NCBI GenBank assembly: GCA_000092065.1
Contig: CP000591.1
DNA: 64,000 bases
Source: Ostreococcus lucimarinus
Taxonomy: Eukaryota
Reading direction: 5' to 3' (one strand)
The notes under the pieces: model-generated
Databases searched by the model: none
The model's input: the letters and a program-made list of their open reading frames with translations, nothing else
Told to the model about the DNA's origin: nothing
Shown: in pieces, positions 3,311-11,897 of the stretch
How the letters are laid out: every line of letters begins with the position of its first letter
Position numbering within the stretch: position 1 is the stretch's first letter
Program-made: the position numbers and the translations under genes

Positions 3311-4455
3311 TTATCTCCCTCGCCGCATCTCGGCGTATTCGTCTTCGCTCGCGCGAAGCAGCGTTAGCATTCTCTTCGCGTTTTCGCCGCCGTCGTTGTT
3401 GACGTGCGGGAAAATGAACTTTGGGTTCATGAAGCGCACAAACTCGCGTAACTCGTTCAGGCTCGAGTGTTCGGAGTACGGCAAACCGTATTGAATCAGC
3501 CTCCCGCGCTGCCTTCGCGACGTTGCTCTCGCCGTTTTCTTCTGCGCGCTAAACGTCCAACCCGTCGGACGAAACGCGATAACGGTGTCGAATCGACTTT
3601 TATAATACTTCAAAATGGACGCCATCTTCATGAAACTCGTCGAGCCCATCGGAACGACGTGCAAGTTTGTTTTCGAGTCGTCGTGCGTCATGGCGCTTCT
3701 CTCCTCGGGATCGAGCGCTATGGCGTCCATGACGCTTCGCTTCGCCTTTCCGATGTACACCTTGCGATTCAACACCTTTGCAGCTTCTAAAAACACTTTC
3801 TCTTTTCCGATCGTGTACGTCCCGAACAAGAACAACTTGCGCGTCGAGAGCAAGTCCTCGTGCACCACGGCGTCGCGAACGGCTTTCAACACGCGCTCTT
3901 GCGTCGGAAAATCGTCGTGTTCGAGCGAACAATACGTCGTGTCGAGGATCAATATCGGCCTCGGCGCCGAAGGATCGCTCGTGATCCGCAAAAGCGTCGG
4001 ATCGTTCCGCATGCCGTCGTGAAATCTAAAATCTCCCGTGTGCAACACCGGCGACGCGTCGCGCCGATGCGGAAACTCGAAACAAATCATCGCCGCTCCC
4101 GGGCAATGATTCGCGCGCAAGAACGTCACGTCCACGCCATCCACGCGCACGACGACGCCGAACTCAACCACGCGCAACCGTTCGCGCGGCACCCCGATCT
4201 TCGTTCGCACCAACTCCGTCGTCGTCCGCGTTCCGTACACGACGCCGCGATCGAACGTTCGCGTCAACCCGCGGTGATGATCCGCGTGAAAGTGCGTCAG
4301 AAACCAGTGTTCGCACCGCGCTTCGCTCGACGCCGCGTACTCGAACCCATCGACGATGAACATCGTTCCCGGCGGCCGTATCCACGCCGGCGGTTTCGCC
4401 TTCGCCTTCGCCTTCGCCGGCGGTTTCGGTTTCGGTTTCGGTTTCGGTTTCGCCT

Positions 4456-4495
<40 letters not shown>

Positions 4496-4906
4496 GCCCG
4501 TCTCGCGCGCCGTCCCCGACGCGAACACCGGCGCGACGCGCGTCGCCTCGTCTCGCGCCTCCGATCGCGCCTCGCGCGCGATCCGAACCCGCGCGCCGAG
4601 CGTCTTCCCCCAACCGATCGCGCCCAGCGTCGTCGTCGCGTCCTTCGCGCGCAGCGCGTCCATCGTCGCTCGCGCGTCGCGCAGTCGCCCTCGAACGAGC
4701 TCGGTCGCGCCGCGCGCGCGCGCGAACGCGACGCACCGCGCGACGTCGTCGTCCATCACGGCGCGCGCGTCGACGCGATCATCGACGATTCGGCGTCGCG
4801 GAGTGCCACACGCCGACGCGCCGTTTGAAAGCGCCCGCGCGCGCTCGGCCCGCCGCGCGACGCGAAAAAACGGTCGACGAACCGACGCGATCGAGCGCGA
4901 GGGCAT
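3311..4906 (-). CDS. SNM1: DNA cross-link repair protein SNM1/PSO2 (metallo-beta-lactamase + DRMBL). The true start may be an internal ATG (4756 or 4663).
   Basis: HFHADHHRGL metallo-beta-lactamase motif, HTGDFR, and a C-terminal DRMBL-like block (KLFLFGTYTIGKEKVF...IAFRPTGWTF). The low-complexity linker is poly-Thr / (KP)n / (AK)n. The first ATG at 4906..4904 is a real ATG: the plus-strand ATG of the neighbouring gene sits at 4905..4907, so the two start codons share the tetranucleotide CATG. Confidence 0.8.
4400..4497. repeat. Coding microsatellites: (CTTCGC)3, (GGTTTC)5 and (GTC)13.
   Basis: Seen directly: gccttcgccttcgccttcgcc...ggtttcggtttcggtttcggtttcggtttc...gtcgtcgtc x13. On the minus strand this encodes TTTTTTTTTTTT-KAKPKPKPKPKPPAKAKAKAK inside SNM1. 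Confidence 0.7.
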
Positions 4907-5399
4907 GACGCCGCGCCGCGACGACGCGGCGTCGCCGAAGCGCGCGAAACGCGCGGTGGAGTGGGACGAGGCGAACCTGGCGAAAAACTTTGCCGAGCGG
5001 AGCGCGACGATGAAGATCGAGGAGATCGAGACGCCGTGGCACAGCCCGCCGAGGGAACTGTTTCATGACCTGCGCGCGGAGGACGAGGGGGAGGTGGCGC
5101 GGCGGGAGCGGGCGCACGAGGAGGTGATGCGGCGACTCGAGGCGTTGATTCGAGCGGACGCGCGAGGCGAGACGTCGACGCCGCCGACGACGAAGGATGC
5201 GGACGCGACGATGGGGGACGAGGGAAGCGAGGATGGGACGTCGAGGGTGGCGTTTCACGATCCGGACGCGAGGGACGAGGATTTCGAGGACGACGCGGAG
5301 GAGGTGGTGAAGAAGAGACTGTTCGACGCGAAGCGAAAGGCGTTTCAGTGCAAGGGACGGGCGACGGCGAGGTTTCTCGCGGACGAGGCGGGCGATTGA
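4905..5399 (+). CDS. Protein phosphatase 1 inhibitor-2 (IPP-2)-like protein
   Basis: Internal ATG (aa 184) of ORF 4356..5399. EWDEANLAKNF...MKIEEIETPWHSPP matches the IPP-2 KWDEMNIL...MKIDEPSTPYH core. Acidic tail ending FDAKRKAFQ. The upstream part of the ORF is the microsatellite read in another frame. Confidence 0.55.
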   Translation: MTPRRDDAASPKRAKRAVEWDEANLAKNFAERSATMKIEEIETPWHSPPRELFHDLRAEDEGEVARRERAHEEVMRRLEALIRADARGETSTPPTTKDADATMGDEGSEDGTSRVAFHDPDARDEDFEDDAEEVVKKRLFDAKRKAFQCKGRATARFLADEAGD

Positions 5400-5450: not shown

Positions 5451-8400
5451 TTAGGCGGAGGCGCGCGCGGCGAGGTCGACGAGATCGGCGTCGTCGCCGG
5501 CGCTGACGACGACGCCCGAGCCGAAGTCGGATTTGACAACCTTGTCAACGACGTCGAATAAGTGCGCGGTCGCGCTGTCGGCTTGACTCGTGAGTAATAC
5601 CGTACGCTTAGGGAGCGCGCGGAGGAGGGATGTGACTCGCGCGATGCCCTCGGCGTCGAGGTGCTGGAGAACTTCGTCGAGGACGAGGGCGTCGCACGCG
5701 ACGCCGCATCGCTCCGAGGCGAGATCGGCGTACGCCAAAGCGAGCGCCAAAGCGGCGCGTCGGCGTTCTCCGCCAGATAATTGTCGAAGCGAACGGGCGA
5801 TCAAACTGCCGTCGGGGCGACGGGCGTGGATCACGCGCTCGATGCGTTCGGCGGCGCTCGCGCTCGCGGGCGCCTTGGCCGATTTGCTCTTCGTCTTTCT
5901 CGTCGCCGTCTCGTCCGCGTCGACGTCGCTCTGCACGACGTCGTTATCGTCCCCGGTGAACGCCGCTCCCGCGGGACGAAGCTCGAGCGTCAAGGCACCG
6001 CCGGTGAGGGCGTCCATGTATTGACCCACGCGCGCGCTCAAATCTCCGAGCGCGCCTTCAAACAGATAACTCTGAATGCCCTTCGTGCTAAACGCTGTGT
6101 CTGCGGCTTGAGCGACGCCAAGGAGCTCTTTTGCGCCATTCAAGGATTCGATTCTCGCGCCGAGAGATTCGCTTTCACCCGCGAGTTGCGCGTCGAGCTC
6201 TTCGAGCGCGCTCGTGTGTGGATTTGAACGCGCCGAACGCGAGAACTCATTCAGCTCTTGCAAGCGTCGTGCCGCGTCACGCCCGGCGCGTTCGCCATCC
6301 ATGATGGCGTCTTCTGCACCTTTGACCAACTGTCGAACGAAATCCGCGTCGGCGACGTTCATTTGTTCGTCGCGAAGGAGCTGGATTTGCGGAGAGGCGT
6401 TCGACAAAGACGCAGACGACATCGATCCTCGCGTCAAGTCGGGATCGAGGCCCGCAAGCACGTTCGAGGACGCGCCGGATATACTGATCGTCGACTCGCT
6501 CATCGCAAATGCATCATCGATTGACATTGTCAGCGCTTCGTGGACGACGTCCTCGGGCGCTGAGTTTAACAACATTTCCGCCCTCGCCACCGCATTGCCG
6601 ATGAGGCTCAACGACCTCTGAGAATGTCGCAACTGATCTGTCGCGTTTGCGGAAGCTGTCGCGGTGGTTTCCGCGCGCATGCGTTCGGCTTTGCGTGCAA
6701 GCGCGGCTGCTTCGGTGAGATTGCGTCTATCATCCATTGCCTTGTTCAGAGCCGCCGTGGCGCGCTTGAGTTGCTCGATGGCGTTCCCGTGCTCAATCGC
6801 CGTCTTTCGCGCTTCATCCTTCAATTTTATGAGCGTTTCTTTGTGATGCGTCGGGTCGATGGCTTGTAAGCAACGATCGCACGTACCGACACCATCTGGA
6901 TGCGAGTGTGTGCCTCCAGCGCCCGCGAACATACCGACTGCGGCGTGACTTTGACGTCCGATGGCGCCCGCGCTCGCCTCCTTGGATTGCCACTCGCGTA
7001 CGACACCGTTAAGTCGTTCGATTTCGCCTTCGATGACGGACGTTTTGTGCTCGAACTCGGATTCTTTCACTTCAAAGCGACGTGCCGCATCATCAGAGTC
7101 ATTTCGTGACGAGTCTAGCACGCGTTCGGCGTGACTCGACGTCACTTCAAGTGCCTCGCTCGCGCGACTCAATCGTTGGAGGAAATGATTTGTCCTCGCT
7201 AAATACTTCGTGAAGGTTGTTGAAACCGCGCTCGAGCTCGTCTCAAGCTCGCTCACGCGGCGCCTGTACTCGAATTCCCACTTCTCACTCTCCACGTGCG
7301 CTTGATCGCGTCGAAGGCGCGTTCGAGCGATGTACTCTTCCCGCGCCTTGACTTCGGCGGCGATGGCGTTGACGTTTCCTCTCGCCTCGGTAACTCGCTT
7401 GCGAGAAATGTCCTTCGCCTTCGTCCACGTGTCCGCCTCGACGAGTTTACCCAGCGCCGCTTTCAACGAAGCGTCGTTCGCGTCGAGCAAAGCTCCTACA
7501 GTGTGCTGACCGTGAAACGTCGTGTTCGCGATGACGTCGGCGCCGAGATCATCGTTCAAGCCTTGCTGCGTCAGTTTTGACTCAGCCATCGTCTTTTCTT
7601 CGCCATCAATGGCGTACTTTAAGCTCACTAATTTCGTTCTGTTCACTTTACGTTCCACCCAAAACGGCGTGCCACCGTTCAAGAACCCTTCTAAGCGAAC
7701 GCGGCCGAATTTCGACGAATCGTTGACGACGTCCGACTTTGTGAGCGACTTGCCCGATCCCGCGCCGTCGATTCGCAAATCACTCTGTCCCGTAAGCGCC
7801 CACATCGGGGACATCACTAACGTCGTCTTCCCCGCACCATTAGAATCCGAACACGTGTCGGATTTGTTCTCTCCCACGACCACGCACACTCCTCTGGCGC
7901 CGAGCGGGTAACGCGTCGCCGACTGAAACGTTCCAAATCCCTCTACTTCCACCGTCTCAAAAGAAACGCTCACACCTTTCGATTGTCGGCGCGTTTCGGG
8001 CGCATCATCAGACGCGGCGACTTCTTGTAAAACTTTGCGCCCGAAAGCGCTGACGCTCGGTGCCATCTCGCTGGCGACGGCGTATGCATCGAACAGTCCC
8101 GCGGGCCCGAGCTCCTCCGCCTTTGGTATGCGCGCCGTGAGATCCTTGGTGACGTAGCACACCTCTACGATGAACCCCTGGTCCCGAGCTTTCTGCACCA
8201 CTGACGGTACGGCGTCGGAAACCGCATCCATGGCTTCGATCGGAAGCGTCCAGCGGATGATGTCTCCCGGACGCGCCGTCGGCGGCGCGCTCGCATCGAC
8301 GCCCTCGACGGCGAAATGTTTCGGCCCGATGTCCAAACTCACGCGCGCATTCGCGCCTTCGACCCACGTCTGCGAGTCAAGAACGATGAACTCTTTCTTT

Positions 8401-9359
8401 TGTCCAGCTTCAGACCGCGAGACTTCGTATGGCGACCCGACGTACGTAATGTTTGTGTTCGGAACGACGTGCGGTTTGTGATAGTGTCCCGTGTACGTGT
8501 TCGCGCCGCCGAAGAGCGCGGGGTCTAATCCATCTCGCGCTTGGAACGTCTCGTTCATGCTAGCTCCGACGACATCGGCGTGACAAAATATCGCGTTGAA
8601 CTCGCCTCGCGTGTCCTCGATCGCGCGCTTGAGTTCATCCGAGTTTCGGCGATACGGCAACCACAACGCGCCGCCGTAAAGCGTCGGCCCGTCAAAGACG
8701 ACGATGTTCGGATTAGCCTTCGCCAGCGGCGTGAGCGCGTGAGATAACCCTCCGGCGGTGACTTGATCGTGGTTCCCCGGAATCATGATCGTCGGCGCCG
8801 TCCACTTCGCGCTCGACATCAACGCCAGCGCCTCGTTGAGCGGTTCGACTGGAATCGCTCCGCGCGCGTGCCAAAAGTCTCCCAAAAATACCACTCCCGC
8901 CTCGCGTTTCAGCGCCTCTGCGTGCACGCGCTCGAGCACCCGTCGACACGTTTCCATGGTGCGTTTACTGACGTGCAAGTCACTGAACACGATCCATCGC
9001 TCGACGCTCGAGTGCGCCGGCGACAGCTCGCTCGCGCGAATCGTCGCGCCCCCACCCTCGCCGCCGACGTCCGCCACCGCGCGCGCAGGCGCCGCCCGCA
9101 CGACGCGCGGATCGATCACACGCCCGCGTCCGCCTCGCGCGGGCGTCGTCAACGCGCGCGCGCGCGCCGCACGCGCGATGGCAGTTTTCCCGCCAGAATG
9201 ATTGTTAGCGATCGATGACGACAGTTTCCTCGCGCCCTGCGTCGTCGTCATCGATGCCGCCCACGCGCGCGCGCCGAGCGTCACGAAACGCGTGTACGTA
9301 TCACTCGACGACGCGGTCGTGGACGCGAGGCGCAGCGCGTGCGTCACGCCGCGTCGCAT
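5451..9359 (-). CDS. Fusion protein: SbcD/Mre11-like metallophosphoesterase nuclease fused to an SbcC/Rad50-like SMC ATPase with a zinc hook. Start uncertain (in-frame ATGs at 9965, 9452, 9359 and 9251).
   Basis: One uninterrupted frame of 1504 codons (track ORF 5451..9965). Positions are aa indices from the 9965 ATG. Around aa 326-650 the calcineurin-like phosphoesterase motifs appear in canonical order: WIVFSDLHV, GDFWHARG, GNHDQV, GHYHKPH. The Rad50/SbcC N-lobe follows immediately with no intervening stop or Met: VEVEGFGTFQ...NGAGKTTLV (Walker A), then coiled coil, a CxxC hook (GVGTCDRCLQAIDP), more coiled coil, and a C-lobe LSGGERRRAALALALAYA signature plus DALVLDEVLQHLD. Aa 170-320 is Ser/Ala/Arg/Thr-rich and looks like a transit peptide. 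I chose 9359 (M203) because it leaves about 90 bp to the divergent neighbour. Confidence 0.75.
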   Translation of the reverse strand: MRRGVTHALRLASTTASSSDTYTRFVTLGARAWAASMTTTQGARKLSSSIANNHSGGKTAIARAARARALTTPARGGRGRVIDPRVVRAAPARAVADVGGEGGGATIRASELSPAHSSVERWIVFSDLHVSKRTMETCRRVLERVHAEALKREAGVVFLGDFWHARGAIPVEPLNEALALMSSAKWTAPTIMIPGNHDQVTAGGLSHALTPLAKANPNIVVFDGPTLYGGALWLPYRRNSDELKRAIEDTRGEFNAIFCHADVVGASMNETFQARDGLDPALFGGANTYTGHYHKPHVVPNTNITYVGSPYEVSRSEAGQKKEFIVLDSQTWVEGANARVSLDIGPKHFAVEGVDASAPPTARPGDIIRWTLPIEAMDAVSDAVPSVVQKARDQGFIVEVCYVTKDLTARIPKAEELGPAGLFDAYAVASEMAPSVSAFGRKVLQEVAASDDAPETRRQSKGVSVSFETVEVEGFGTFQSATRYPLGARGVCVVVGENKSDTCSDSNGAGKTTLVMSPMWALTGQSDLRIDGAGSGKSLTKSDVVNDSSKFGRVRLEGFLNGGTPFWVERKVNRTKLVSLKYAIDGEEKTMAESKLTQQGLNDDLGADVIANTTFHGQHTVGALLDANDASLKAALGKLVEADTWTKAKDISRKRVTEARGNVNAIAAEVKAREEYIARTRLRRDQAHVESEKWEFEYRRRVSELETSSSAVSTTFTKYLARTNHFLQRLSRASEALEVTSSHAERVLDSSRNDSDDAARRFEVKESEFEHKTSVIEGEIERLNGVVREWQSKEASAGAIGRQSHAAVGMFAGAGGTHSHPDGVGTCDRCLQAIDPTHHKETLIKLKDEARKTAIEHGNAIEQLKRATAALNKAMDDRRNLTEAAALARKAERMRAETTATASANATDQLRHSQRSLSLIGNAVARAEMLLNSAPEDVVHEALTMSIDDAFAMSESTISISGASSNVLAGLDPDLTRGSMSSASLSNASPQIQLLRDEQMNVADADFVRQLVKGAEDAIMDGERAGRDAARRLQELNEFSRSARSNPHTSALEELDAQLAGESESLGARIESLNGAKELLGVAQAADTAFSTKGIQSYLFEGALGDLSARVGQYMDALTGGALTLELRPAGAAFTGDDNDVVQSDVDADETATRKTKSKSAKAPASASAAERIERVIHARRPDGSLIARSLRQLSGGERRRAALALALAYADLASERCGVACDALVLDEVLQHLDAEGIARVTSLLRALPKRTVLLTSQADSATAHLFDVVDKVVKSDFGSGVVVSAGDDADLVDLAARASA

Positions 9360-9450
9360 TCTGATGTTGTCTTGACTTTTAAGCGTGCGGACGCGCCATC
9401 TTGCGCCGCGACGCGGCGCGGCGCGCGTCGTCGCGACCGCGCGCGCTGCC

Positions 9451-10440
9451 ATGGCGTCGATGCGACCGCTAGAAGCGCGCTCGCCGGACGTCGATCGCGC
9501 GAACGCGGCGCTGGAGCGGGAAATCGCGGCGCTGCAAAGACAGTCCGCGACGGCGACGACGCCGTCGTCGAAAGCGACGCCGTCGAACGACGCCGTCGTC
9601 GAGCGATCGCGCGCGAGGGTGCGCGCGCTCGAACGCGAGCTCGCGCTGGCGAACGAAGAGCGCGAGCGCGAGCGGGAGATGTGGATTTCGAGGTGCGAAC
9701 GGCAGGCGACGGAGCTTCGAGCGCTCGCGGCGAGCGCGGAGTCGCGAGCGCGAATCGCGAGCGAGGACGCCGAGGCGGCGATGCTCGAGCGAGATGAGAT
9801 TTTGAGAGAATTGAAAGCGTTGCGCGCGGAGGCGGCGAGACGGGCGATGCAGGACGCGGAGATTGAGCTGGAACGAGCGGCGTTCGCGAACGCGAAACGT
9901 TTCGCGGACGCGCGAACGATGAGACGCGCGCTCGTTCGGTGGATCGAAGGGTGCGTGTTCAACATCGCGGCTCGGCATGTGATTCAAAAGATGGACGTGA
10001 GACGAAAGCGAGATACGCTGATGGAGTGGCGCGATGCGGCGGCGTTTGAGCGACGCCTCCGCGAGACGCGTGCGCGCGGCGACCTTCGTCTCGCCGCGCG
10101 CGTGTTTCGACATTGGAGTTTGTTCGTGGAGGTCAGTGGAATGTGTGAGCGCTCTCGTCTCGCGCGCGCGCTAGCGCGGTGGAAATCATACGACGCGACG
10201 GATGAGGGTACATTAGATGACGTCGAGATACCGTCGATGCGAGAAAAGTATCTCGCGCTAGTCAATCGCGTCCGGCGGAGAGAAATCATGCGCGGCGCCT
10301 TCACCGCGTGGATAGTCGTGTTAGCGAACGCGAAGAGCGCGCGCGCACTGGCGATGGAAATTCTGCGCGATCGTGAGCGCGGCGAGGTGCGGTCGTCGCT
10401 CGCGAAATTAAAGGCGCGTCGCGTGGGCGCGATAGAATAG
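9451..10440 (+). CDS. Coiled-coil protein with Sfi1-like Trp-containing repeats (possible centrin-binding / basal-body protein).
   Basis: Internal ATG (aa 23) of ORF 9385..10440. Heptad-rich (ALEREIAALQRQ..., ELALANEERERE). Repeated A..[FL]..W spacing about every 23-33 aa (LVRWIEGCVF, LMEWRDAAAF, VFRHWSLFVE, LARWKSYD, FTAWIVVL). Weak motif-level call. Confidence 0.4.
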   Translation: MASMRPLEARSPDVDRANAALEREIAALQRQSATATTPSSKATPSNDAVVERSRARVRALERELALANEEREREREMWISRCERQATELRALAASAESRARIASEDAEAAMLERDEILRELKALRAEAARRAMQDAEIELERAAFANAKRFADARTMRRALVRWIEGCVFNIAARHVIQKMDVRRKRDTLMEWRDAAAFERRLRETRARGDLRLAARVFRHWSLFVEVSGMCERSRLARALARWKSYDATDEGTLDDVEIPSMREKYLALVNRVRRREIMRGAFTAWIVVLANAKSARALAMEILRDRERGEVRSSLAKLKARRVGAIE

Positions 10441-10522: not shown

Positions 10523-11521
10523 TCACGCGCGCGAGAAACCGCCGGCCGTTTCAATGAGACGCTTGGGTCTGTTCAACGTGCACTTCGTGCCGCAGGCGGA
10601 GCACTTGTGTTCAAACGTCTCCGCGGGCGACTCGCCGCCAAAGAATTGCTTGATCGGCATCTCGCAGCACGGGCATGCCCCGATCAAGATTTCAGCGTTT
10701 TGCAGGTTGGTGTAGTTGACTAACTTGTACGTCAAGCCCGCGCAAAGCGTCGCCGCGAACCCGAGCGAAAGGCCCGAGGGAACGTGCACGCCGAAAAAGC
10801 CGAGCAAGATGCTCGGAGACAATCCGAGCAACAACGGGACCGTGGCGAGCGCGGCGTACATGGTAAAGACCCCACTCGTGTCGGAGATGAGTTCCGTGCT
10901 CGTCTGCGACAACGTGCACGTCGCACCCTTCATGCCCACCTCGATTCCTAACTTTTTCATCTCCGCTCCCAAGAGTTCAAACTCCGCCTCGTCGAGGAGT
11001 TCCTTCCCCTTGGTGTAGAGCAACAGCGCAGTCACGTCCGTGCGCTTGCCTTCCGCCTTCACTCGTCGCTTCAACTCTTCGTACTTGTCGTCGTCCACGA
11101 CCGATTCCCCTCGCGAGTAAGAAATCGCCGCTTGCACGAATTCAATCTCATACCTTCGCAGCGTCGGGAACCCGCTCCCTTGCCAATTCAACTCCTCTCT
11201 CAATCGATCGTAATCCTCGTCGCTCAGCGTGAACTTACCACCGTTATAGTAATTCCACAGCGCGTCGACGTACATGAGCTCGAGATCGGCCAGCGAGCAC
11301 GAGCTCGGGTCGTCGATCGAGCACGAGACGCCGATGTCGGGGTTCACGTTGCTCCCTTCGCTCTTCATCACGATCTTTTGCGCCCGCGCACCGCCTTCGC
11401 GTCCGCCTCTGCGCATCACCACCGCGACGCGCGTTTCACGCATAGTCGCGCCGCGTCGCAAGCGCGTTTGACGCGCTGAAGCGCGCGTCAGCGTCGGCAT
11501 CTTGCTCGACGTCGTCATCAT
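10523..11521 (-). CDS. PGRL1: PGR5-like protein 1 (PGRL1), chloroplast cyclic-electron-flow protein
   Basis: ADLELMYVDALWNYYNGGKFTLSDEDYDRLREELNWQGS...FVQAAISYSRGESVVDDDKYEELKRRVKAEG aligns by eye with Arabidopsis PGRL1A (MEQEFLQALQSFYYDGKAIMSNEEFDNLKEELMWEGS...FLEASMAYVSGNPILNDEEYDKLK). Two TM helices and C-terminal Cys pairs (GACPCC...KCSACGT versus GPCPNCG...KCTNCGT). The track start at 11707 is GTG, so I moved the start to the first ATG (MMTTSS). The N-terminus is transit-peptide-like. Confidence 0.8.
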   Translation of the reverse strand: MMTTSSKMPTLTRASARQTRLRRGATMRETRVAVVMRRGGREGGARAQKIVMKSEGSNVNPDIGVSCSIDDPSSCSLADLELMYVDALWNYYNGGKFTLSDEDYDRLREELNWQGSGFPTLRRYEIEFVQAAISYSRGESVVDDDKYEELKRRVKAEGKRTDVTALLLYTKGKELLDEAEFELLGAEMKKLGIEVGMKGATCTLSQTSTELISDTSGVFTMYAALATVPLLLGLSPSILLGFFGVHVPSGLSLGFAATLCAGLTYKLVNYTNLQNAEILIGACPCCEMPIKQFFGGESPAETFEHKCSACGTKCTLNRPKRLIETAGGFSRA

Positions 11522-11897
11522 GGCGTCGGATCTCGTCGCGCGACTTTTCGTCGTTCGCGTCGCTCGCGCGCGTCGATTCGCGCGTCGGTTCGCGGCGTCG
11601 AGGCGTTCGGGCGCGTGCGCGTTCGATCGCGCGCGTCGTGCGTGCGCGCGCGCGTCGCGTCGGCGTGTGCGGGACAGATCGCGACGGCCGGATAAACAAG
11701 CCCCCACGTGCCCGTAGGGTTTGGGCGCGCGAAGGCGGACGGCGTGAAGCGCGACGAGCGCGTCGCGTTACAACTGGAAACTAAACGTGATTGGGAGCGA
11801 AACGCTCGATGGAACGAATGCGGATCATGCGACGACGACGACGTCGCGCGAGGGCGGGCGAACGGGCGGAGACGGGGGACGAGCGGCGGCGAGGAGG

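Follow-up and report, generated by a model that had tools for sequence, protein, structure and literature searches.

The question raised by this locus is whether one reading frame of Ostreococcus lucimarinus encodes, as a single polypeptide, both the nuclease and the ATPase of a DNA-end-processing complex of the Mre11-Rad50 (SbcD-SbcC) kind and, if so, to which family the protein belongs, where in the cell it would act and where it came from. The frame lies on the minus strand of a 64,000 nt stretch of contig CP000591.1 (assembly GCA_000092065.1), hereafter the window, in locally GC-rich DNA (~65% GC). An initial annotation, made from the sequence alone, had placed it at 5451..9965 (-) with 1504 codons and no stop, and it is present exactly so, with zero internal stops. 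The reading favoured here, with good confidence, is that the gene is an Ostreococcus-type orthologue of a fusion family described in 2011, that its product would process DNA ends and hairpins after import into an organelle, most likely the plastid, and that the family lies outside the canonical clades, with fused proteins, probably of large DNA viruses, as its nearest non-algal relatives.

A nuclease and a zinc-hook ATPase on one chain

Residues are numbered from the ATG at 9359, the likely start codon, and positions in the full open reading frame (ORF) are added in brackets; all features of the gene are on the minus strand. The nuclease half contains an Mre11/SbcD-type phosphodiesterase core at aa 121-317 (8409..8999) with motifs I (SDLHV, 126-130; ORF 328-332), II (GDFWHARG, 160-167; ORF 362-369), III (GNHDQ, 195-199; ORF 397-401), IV (CHADV, 259-263) and V (GHYHKPH, 291-297; ORF 493-499). 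The catalytic residues D127, H129, D161, N196, H197, H260, H292 and H294 are invariant in an alignment of 15 diverse members of the family, and Pfam Metallophos matches aa 123-205 with 26.4 bits against a gathering cut-off of 21.5. Foldseek comparison with the PDB retrieved, for the nuclease half, E. coli SbcD (4lty, 6s6v, 7yzo), T. maritima Mre11 (3tho, 4nzv) and M. jannaschii Mre11 (4tug; target TM-score (template modelling score) 0.65, root-mean-square deviation 4.8, 329 columns), with target TM-scores of 0.50-0.65 overall and alignments of 327-413 columns that exceed the ~200-residue nuclease core. No metallophosphatase other than Mre11/SbcD was found in the Foldseek top 50.

An AlphaFold2 (AF2) model of residues 103-1302, built from a 48-sequence alignment with a mean predicted local distance difference test score (pLDDT) of 78.8, covers the region beyond the core. 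A beta-rich domain is predicted at aa 322-403 (8151..8396), at the position of the Mre11 capping domain (strands in model residues 220-301, pLDDT mostly 67-94). Directly before the ATPase the model places two helices at aa 419-449 (8013..8105; model residues 317-327 and 332-347), which would stand where Mre11 has its Rad50-binding helix-loop-helix, the same inference having been made for the family (PMC3175470).

The ATPase half begins with a Rad50/SbcC N-lobe at aa 463-642 (7434..7973), which is matched by Pfam AAA_23 (aa 470-620, 28.4 bits against a gathering cut-off of 27) and by SMC_N, the latter covering both lobes. Within it are the Walker A motif NGAGKTT (aa 507-513, 7821-7841; ORF 709-715), of which N507, G510 and K511 are invariant among the 15 members, and the Q-loop FHGQH (aa 615-619, 7503-7517). 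An ascending coiled-coil arm follows at aa 642-813 (6921..7436; long helices in model residues 540-711) and leads to a zinc hook at aa 822-835 (6855..6896), where CDRC (aa 827-830, 6870-6881; ORF 1029-1032) stands at the apex between two long helices of the AF2 model. C827, C830 and Q832 are invariant in both the 15- and the 48-sequence alignments, as are the catalytic residues of the two halves, and a CxxC was found at the equivalent position in every member in which the motif scan could be anchored. The descending arm occupies aa 836-1119 (6003..6854; helices in model residues 734-1017) and includes a disordered insert at about aa 953-994 (pLDDT <50 at model residues 851-892). The C-lobe at aa 1123-1287 (5499..5993) is matched by Pfam SbcC_Walker_B (aa 1181-1247, 30.4 bits against a gathering cut-off of 27) and is where a profile of the family matches Rad50 structures; a motif survey places in it the signature LSGGERRR (aa 1194-1201, 5757-5780; ORF 1396-1403), the Walker B/D-loop LVLDEVLQHLD (aa 1225-1235, 5655-5687; LVLDEV at ORF 1427-1432) and LLTSQ (5583-5597), with Gln at the position of the H-loop His. 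In the AF2 model the two lobes are split by an antiparallel coiled coil with ~170 residues per arm and the CxxC at its tip, and Foldseek against the PDB returned C. thermophilum Rad50 first (E 1e-16), then SMC-type ATPases.

A second disordered, charged insert lies inside the C-lobe at aa 1135-1164 (window ~5870-5960, -; pLDDT <50). The length of each insert differs widely among Ostreococcus, Bathycoccus and other lineages.

The junction between nuclease and ATPase contains neither a stop nor a frame shift, the linker region aligns unbroken across the 15 members, and nuclease, ATPase N-lobe and ATPase C-lobe stand on one chain in all 120 of the 120 listed homologues, which come from independent genomes and metagenomes. 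GC-rich DNA does yield long spurious frames at this locus, as the first 202 codons of the ORF illustrate (see below), but given the intact junction and the uniformly single-chain homologues it is hardly credible that two genes were joined here by a sequencing error or that the frame is itself spurious. The protein is a single-chain fusion of nuclease and ATPase. The uninterrupted frame, the motifs and the fused homologues thus bear out the architecture first proposed for the ORF, and every motif quoted for it (SDLHV, GDFWHARG, GNHDQ, GHYHKPH, NGAGKTT, the CxxC hook and LVLDEV) was located, in canonical order. The Pfam domains that had been expected were recovered in part: Metallophos, AAA_23 and SbcC_Walker_B exceeded their gathering scores, and Rad50_zn_hook matched only 1 of the 15 members. 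Individual Pfam and PDB signals are weak, yet they are mutually consistent.

Relation to SbcCD, Mre11-Rad50 and the published fusions

Pfam and NCBIfam models were scanned at E up to 1 for the single protein and at E up to 0.01 for the 15 family sequences, and at these thresholds the listed matches included neither Mre11_DNA_bind nor any eukaryotic Rad50 or Mre11 model, in keeping with the initial view that the protein is distinct from canonical eukaryotic MRE11/RAD50. The further claim that the ATPase is SbcC-like and not Rad50-like was too sharp. The NCBIfam sbcc and sbcd models (TIGR00618, TIGR00619, PRK10966) give weak matches in 14 of the 15 members, far under their cut-offs (sbcc 30.6 bits against 478.5; sbcd 18.1 against 77.65), and in searches of PDB sequences the family profile prefers the Rad50 heads of M. 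jannaschii (1e-17) and T. maritima (4e-13) over E. coli SbcC (2.6e-6). On the nuclease side the same profile matches SbcD (7dog, 1.7e-8) and T. maritima Mre11 (3qg5, 3.7e-6); the window protein searched singly matches T. maritima Mre11/SbcD weakly (4e-5) and Rad50/SbcC at the C-terminal lobe. Judged by these comparisons, the protein belongs to the Mre11/SbcD and Rad50/SbcC superfamilies and is neither a canonical SbcCD nor a canonical eukaryotic MRE11/RAD50.

With bacterial SbcCD (6s6v, 7yzo, 4lty) it shares the Mre11-type nuclease motifs, the Rad50-type ABC head, the CxxC hook and the LSGGE signature, as well as structural matches to SbcD and SbcC and a domain order equal to that of the sbcD-sbcC operon. 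It differs in being one chain instead of two subunits, in having Gln for the H-loop His, in its N-terminal extension and in being eukaryotic and nuclear-encoded, and E. coli SbcC (1048 aa) is longer than the corresponding half. Canonical MRE11-RAD50(-NBS1) belongs to the same superfamily, presumably shares the principle of an ATP-gated nuclease and supplies the top Foldseek match, C. thermophilum Rad50. There, however, MRE11 and RAD50 are separate genes, RAD50 is 1312-1315 aa in human and C. thermophilum whereas the ATPase part of the window protein is much shorter, and the signature is of the S-A-G-Q-K type rather than LSGGE. No NBS1 partner is implied for the window protein.

Such fusions are known. 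Yoshida, Claverie and Ogata (2011, Virol J 8:427, PMC3175470) described natural Mre11/Rad50 (SbcD/SbcC) fusions, starting from Mimivirus R555, in Micromonas pusilla CCMP1545, Micromonas sp. RCC299, Physcomitrella and Phaeodactylum, and also in two slime moulds and a few Firmicutes, on a Deferribacter megaplasmid and in a Bacillus phage. The fusions from the moss, the diatom and the prasinophytes (UniProt C1N0B1, C1FJU6, A9RK34, B7FXD6) formed a group with 91% bootstrap support outside the three canonical clades, bacterial, archaeal and eukaryotic, and Micromonas, Physcomitrella and Phaeodactylum all possess canonical Mre11 and Rad50 as well (PMC3175470). The authors noted a region sized for the capping and helix-loop-helix elements, argued that the fusion suits the geometry of the T. 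maritima complex and preferred a viral origin with lateral transfer (PMC3175470). The window protein shares the one-chain layout of that group, from N-terminal nuclease through a region that may correspond to the capping and helix elements to an ATPase with coiled coil, and aligns over the nuclease and both ATPase lobes with homologues from Physcomitrium patens (P0066, E 2.9e-162), Marchantia (4e-179) and Skeletonema (2e-104), these being database homologues and not the UniProt entries of the paper itself. By these alignments the window gene is an orthologue, from a sister genus, of the moss-diatom-prasinophyte fusions and its architecture was already known, so that the initial suggestion of a component not yet described does not hold for the fused layout (PMC3175470). 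The 2011 paper includes no Ostreococcus member and does not discuss N-terminal extensions or organelle targeting (PMC3175470).

The family is distributed more widely than the 2011 list, to which red, brown and streptophyte algae, liverworts and a lycophyte are added here. Named members come from green lineages (Ostreococcus tauri, Bathycoccus, trebouxiophytes, chlorophyceans, Chloropicon, Tetraselmis and Bryopsis), streptophyte algae (Mesostigma, Chlorokybus and Closterium), land plants (liverworts, mosses and the lycophyte Diphasiastrum), red algae (Cyanidium, Cyanidiococcus, Galdieria, Gracilaria and Agarophyton) and ochrophytes (diatoms, Triparma and brown algae), and all of them belong to plastid-bearing lineages, red, green or ochrophyte. 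No seed plant is found among the best 120 matches to the Marchantia protein, in which the lycophyte appears at 54% identity, and this suggests loss from seed plants. Most family members still carry a 'hypothetical' or 'P-loop NTPase' annotation, and a literature search found no functional or localisation study of the fused family after 2011.

Extent of the gene

The likely coding sequence is 5451..9359 (-), 1302 aa plus the stop codon, with the start taken from orthologue gene models. A database protein of 1302 aa (P0001) is 100% identical to the window protein across a 1266-aa query, which sets the start at the ATG at 9359; its contig has 99.3% DNA identity to the window, and the gene is called there from the equivalent ATG. 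The opening residues 'MRR...' are those of the Ostreococcus-type orthologues. All four ATGs proposed as candidate starts (9965, 9452, 9359 and 9251) were verified at those positions. The syntenic counterpart on O. tauri chromosome 11, where the order of neighbouring genes is shared, is an unannotated protein of 1268 aa with 75% identity.

The upstream 202 codons of the open frame (9360..9965, -) are antisense to, or between, neighbouring genes and are not conserved in O. tauri. ORF codons 1 to ~172 are the antisense strand of a gene at 9451..10440 (+), and only 77 codons of open frame precede the annotated ATG in O. tauri. Because of this overlap with a conserved plus-strand gene, the starts of the orthologues and the 77-codon limit in O. 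tauri, the first 202 codons are almost certainly non-coding. The antisense overlap and the orthologue starts rule out the 1504-aa frame as the protein.

Within the gene, GC content falls to 0.57 at 6001-8000, which corresponds to the ATPase N-lobe and the coiled coil, compared with 0.65-0.67 in the adjacent 2-kb bins.

The N-terminal extension and a candidate organellar destination

Ahead of the nuclease, aa 1-117 (9009..9359, -) form a presequence-like extension, recognised by its composition and by comparison of orthologues: it contains 13.7% R, 4.3% D+E, 21% S+T and 20.5% A, as against 7.3% R and 14.1% D+E in the rest of the protein. The transit-peptide-like N-terminus of the initial annotation therefore stands as a basic, acid-poor extension of ~117 aa, while about two thirds of the 200-320 aa claimed for it are antisense sequence. 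The extension includes 'IDPRVVRAAP', which is conserved among Ostreococcus-type orthologues where the rest of the extension is variable, and 'VRAAP' is reminiscent of the V-x-A cleavage motif of green-algal stromal proteins.

Comparable starts recur across the family. In most of 24 named orthologues examined, 65-340 residues precede the nuclease, and the first 60 of them usually have 5-16 Arg+Lys and 0-6 Asp+Glu; the exceptions have short or acid-richer N-termini. In several ochrophyte members the N-terminus opens with a hydrophobic, signal-peptide-like stretch and then Phe, matched by eye, as in MCLTAAAVLIVVFVTS-FQQ and ...LIPRS-FQF. A hydrophobic stretch followed by Phe is a hallmark of diatom plastid presequences, and a signal peptide is not expected on a nuclear or cytosolic protein.

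Organelle import is plausible, and the plastid is the best guess on account of the presequence-like N-termini, the ochrophyte starts and the restriction of the family to plastid-bearing lineages. Targeting to mitochondria, or to both organelles, is fairly unlikely: the Arg/Ala-rich, acid-poor extension of the Ostreococcus type would also suit a mitochondrial presequence, but named members occur only in plastid-bearing lineages and several ochrophyte members have the bipartite-looking start with Phe after the hydrophobic stretch.

Ochrophyte members (P0229, P0114, P0148, P0146, P0173 and others) carry an additional small conserved domain, 'VGDxVxV...G.I.E.RGSGWYSV.L', between presequence and nuclease, for which Pfam gave only sub-threshold hints of a small beta-barrel (OB/SH3-like).

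Virus-like relatives and the origin of the family

The initial annotation regarded an endosymbiont origin as probable. The comparisons lend that proposal no positive support. An exhaustive HMMER search with the nuclease half gave 212 cluster representatives under E 1e-30, and besides algal sequences this set includes fused proteins of ~1000-1047 aa that begin right at the nuclease motif and so lack the N-terminal extension. The window protein has 30% identity to one of these across 621 aligned columns, with 'IMIPGNHD', 'YTGHYH' and 'SNGAGK' common to the two. Their genes sit on metagenomic contigs of 50-520 kb with short, tightly packed genes (contigs of P0228, P0372 and P0350), among them MutS with domains I and V, a histone, a Ras-type GTPase, a mitochondrial-carrier protein, dUTPase, a DNA methylase, a viral-type helicase and a terminase-like protein, and these contigs probably derive from large DNA viruses of marine eukaryotes. 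Exact peptide patterns of this clade gave no match in IMG/VR. By sequence comparison, then, the nearest non-algal relatives of the algal family are fused proteins encoded on virus-like contigs. Foldseek also matched fused viral proteins over the whole length (E 1e-43 to 1e-26; Listeria phage LMTA-57, Tupanvirus and TetV-1). The viral and phage fusions (Mimivirus R555 family, Tupanvirus, TetV-1, Pyramimonas orientalis virus, Listeria phage LMTA-57) share the fused layout, while the virus-like fusions differ from the algal proteins in having no N-terminal extension, in keeping the H-loop His and in forming a clade of their own.

A neighbour-joining tree (478 columns, 105 sequences, 200 bootstraps) recovered the virus-like clade as monophyletic in 100% of the bootstraps, but its position received support of 3% or less, and with a single, very distant outgroup the root of the tree is unreliable. 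Red, green and ochrophyte sequences each group together, weakly (14-37% of bootstraps). Motif states offer mixed hints to the origin: for the signature, greens have LSGGERRR, reds mostly LSGGQRRR, and ochrophytes share [LM]SGGQWRR with the virus-like clade. At the H-loop, green and ochrophyte members have Gln, a possible shared derived character, where most of the red-algal members and every virus-like member that was scored retain His.

Capture of the gene from a large DNA virus, with a role in nuclear or cytoplasmic break repair or against invading DNA and with the extension as a low-complexity tail, would account for the closeness and monophyly of the virus-like fusions and agrees with the published finding that fusions are common in mimivirus relatives and present in some phages (PMC3175470). 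It is nevertheless considered quite unlikely as a whole. The red, green and ochrophyte groupings, weak as they are, suit old vertical descent with spread by secondary plastids better than repeated transfers, the signal-peptide-like starts of ochrophyte members would be unexpected on a nuclear or cytosolic protein, and, with the virus-like clade so weakly placed in the tree, transfer from alga to virus is as possible as the reverse.

For a prokaryotic source, 185,579 genomes of GTDB, one per species, were scanned with two peptide patterns only, a search of limited sensitivity that found no close relative and three weak matches at 24-25% identity. Two of these are Spirulina sbcC genes that align at 24% identity with nothing but the ATPase part, and the match in a Clostridiaceae metagenome-assembled genome covers both halves as separate sbcD (370 aa) and sbcC (633 aa) genes with a 4-nt overlap. 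With these matches and the virus-like relatives in view, the endosymbiont origin can no longer be called probable. The route it implies, by which a cyanobacterial or alpha-proteobacterial sbcD-sbcC operon moved to the nucleus, fused and had its product re-targeted to the organelle, is very unlikely here, even though the domain order is that of the operon, an overlap like that of the Clostridiaceae genes would make fusion easy in one step, the NCBIfam sbcc and sbcd models match weakly in 14 of 15 members and the distribution is confined to plastid lineages. Besides the outcome of the pattern scan, the published tree puts the fused group outside the bacterial SbcCD clade (PMC3175470), and E. coli SbcC is a poorer match to the family profile than the Rad50 proteins of archaea and Thermotoga are.

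Spread of an old gene along with secondary plastids would account for the broad, lineage-structured distribution no less well than repeated lateral transfer. Because the family is present in red, green and ochrophyte lineages, no seed plant occurs among the listed matches and the presequence-like N-termini are lacking in the virus-like relatives, the comparisons fit an old, vertically inherited and probably organelle-targeted protein, in contrast to the sporadic lateral transfer of the published account.

Proposed mechanism and cellular role

For the favoured reading, an imported fusion protein that processes ends and hairpins, a mechanism can be proposed by analogy with Mre11-Rad50 and SbcCD. 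Two chains would pair through their nuclease domains, their ATP-engaged heads and the zinc hook, and binding and hydrolysis of ATP would clamp DNA and give ends, hairpins or blocked termini access to the Mn-dependent nuclease site. Joining the two proteins covalently would replace or reinforce the tether of the Mre11 helix-loop-helix to the Rad50 coiled coil, and the fusion would set a 1:1 stoichiometry, with one presequence then being enough for import. The nuclear-encoded protein, imported into an organelle that the N-termini and the phyletic distribution suggest to be the plastid, would there act on DNA ends, or on hairpins formed by palindromes, as part of recombination-dependent genome maintenance.

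Several points weigh against this reading. The low Pfam and NCBIfam scores point to a very divergent family whose activity is assumed, and Gln in place of the H-loop His may give ATPase kinetics that differ from those of canonical Rad50. Green-algal plastid and mitochondrial presequences look alike, and the extension is lacking in the gene models of Coccomyxa (31 aa) and Chlamydomonas sp. UWO241 (38 aa), although these two short N-termini may reflect truncated models.

A more specific proposal is offered tentatively, as possible rather than probable: that the plastid has in this imported, nuclear-encoded fusion a machine of its own for resecting ends and cleaving hairpins, and that the protein was already present in the ancestors of red and green algae, reached ochrophytes along with secondary red plastids, persisted in bryophytes and a lycophyte and disappeared from seed plants. 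If so, it would supply the nuclease step, so far unassigned, that precedes RecA-type recombination when plastid genomes are maintained. Among the papers searched, none proposes or tests a plastid role for the fused protein, and organelle targeting is the part that still looks new, the fused layout having been known since 2011 (PMC3175470). Confirmation would put a name to a nuclease for DNA-end and palindrome processing in the organelles of algae and bryophytes, and would provide a natural single-chain Mre11-Rad50 for structural work.

Neighbouring genes

The gene that limits the fused gene on its 5' side, but does not belong to the system, is divergent from it (9451..10440, +), starts ~90 bp from the fused-gene start and is called in both syntenic loci. 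Its product of 329 aa is Arg/Glu/Ala-rich and probably helical, has 39% identity to the O. tauri orthologue (E 6e-37) and matches no Pfam family. Beyond it, an ORF at 10523-11707 (-), also with no match in Pfam, has a C-terminal half with hydrophobic stretches and two CxxC pairs ('CPCCEMP...CSACGTKC'), and may resemble the thylakoid protein PGRL1.

On the 3' side, a gene for IPP-2 (protein phosphatase inhibitor 2) at ~4900-5399 (+) converges on the fused gene, the two stop codons being ~50 bp apart. Beyond IPP-2, ~0.5 kb downstream of the fused gene, lies an SNM1/Artemis-type DNA cross-link repair gene (3311-4906, -; Pfam DRMBL 4.5e-35), in an arrangement that is syntenic with O. tauri. The occurrence of two DNA-repair nuclease genes as near neighbours is probably a coincidence. 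The SNM1/Artemis-type ORF carries a low-complexity tract of poly-Thr and (Lys-Pro)n in its N-terminal third, and the syntenic gene calls are shorter (382-478 aa).

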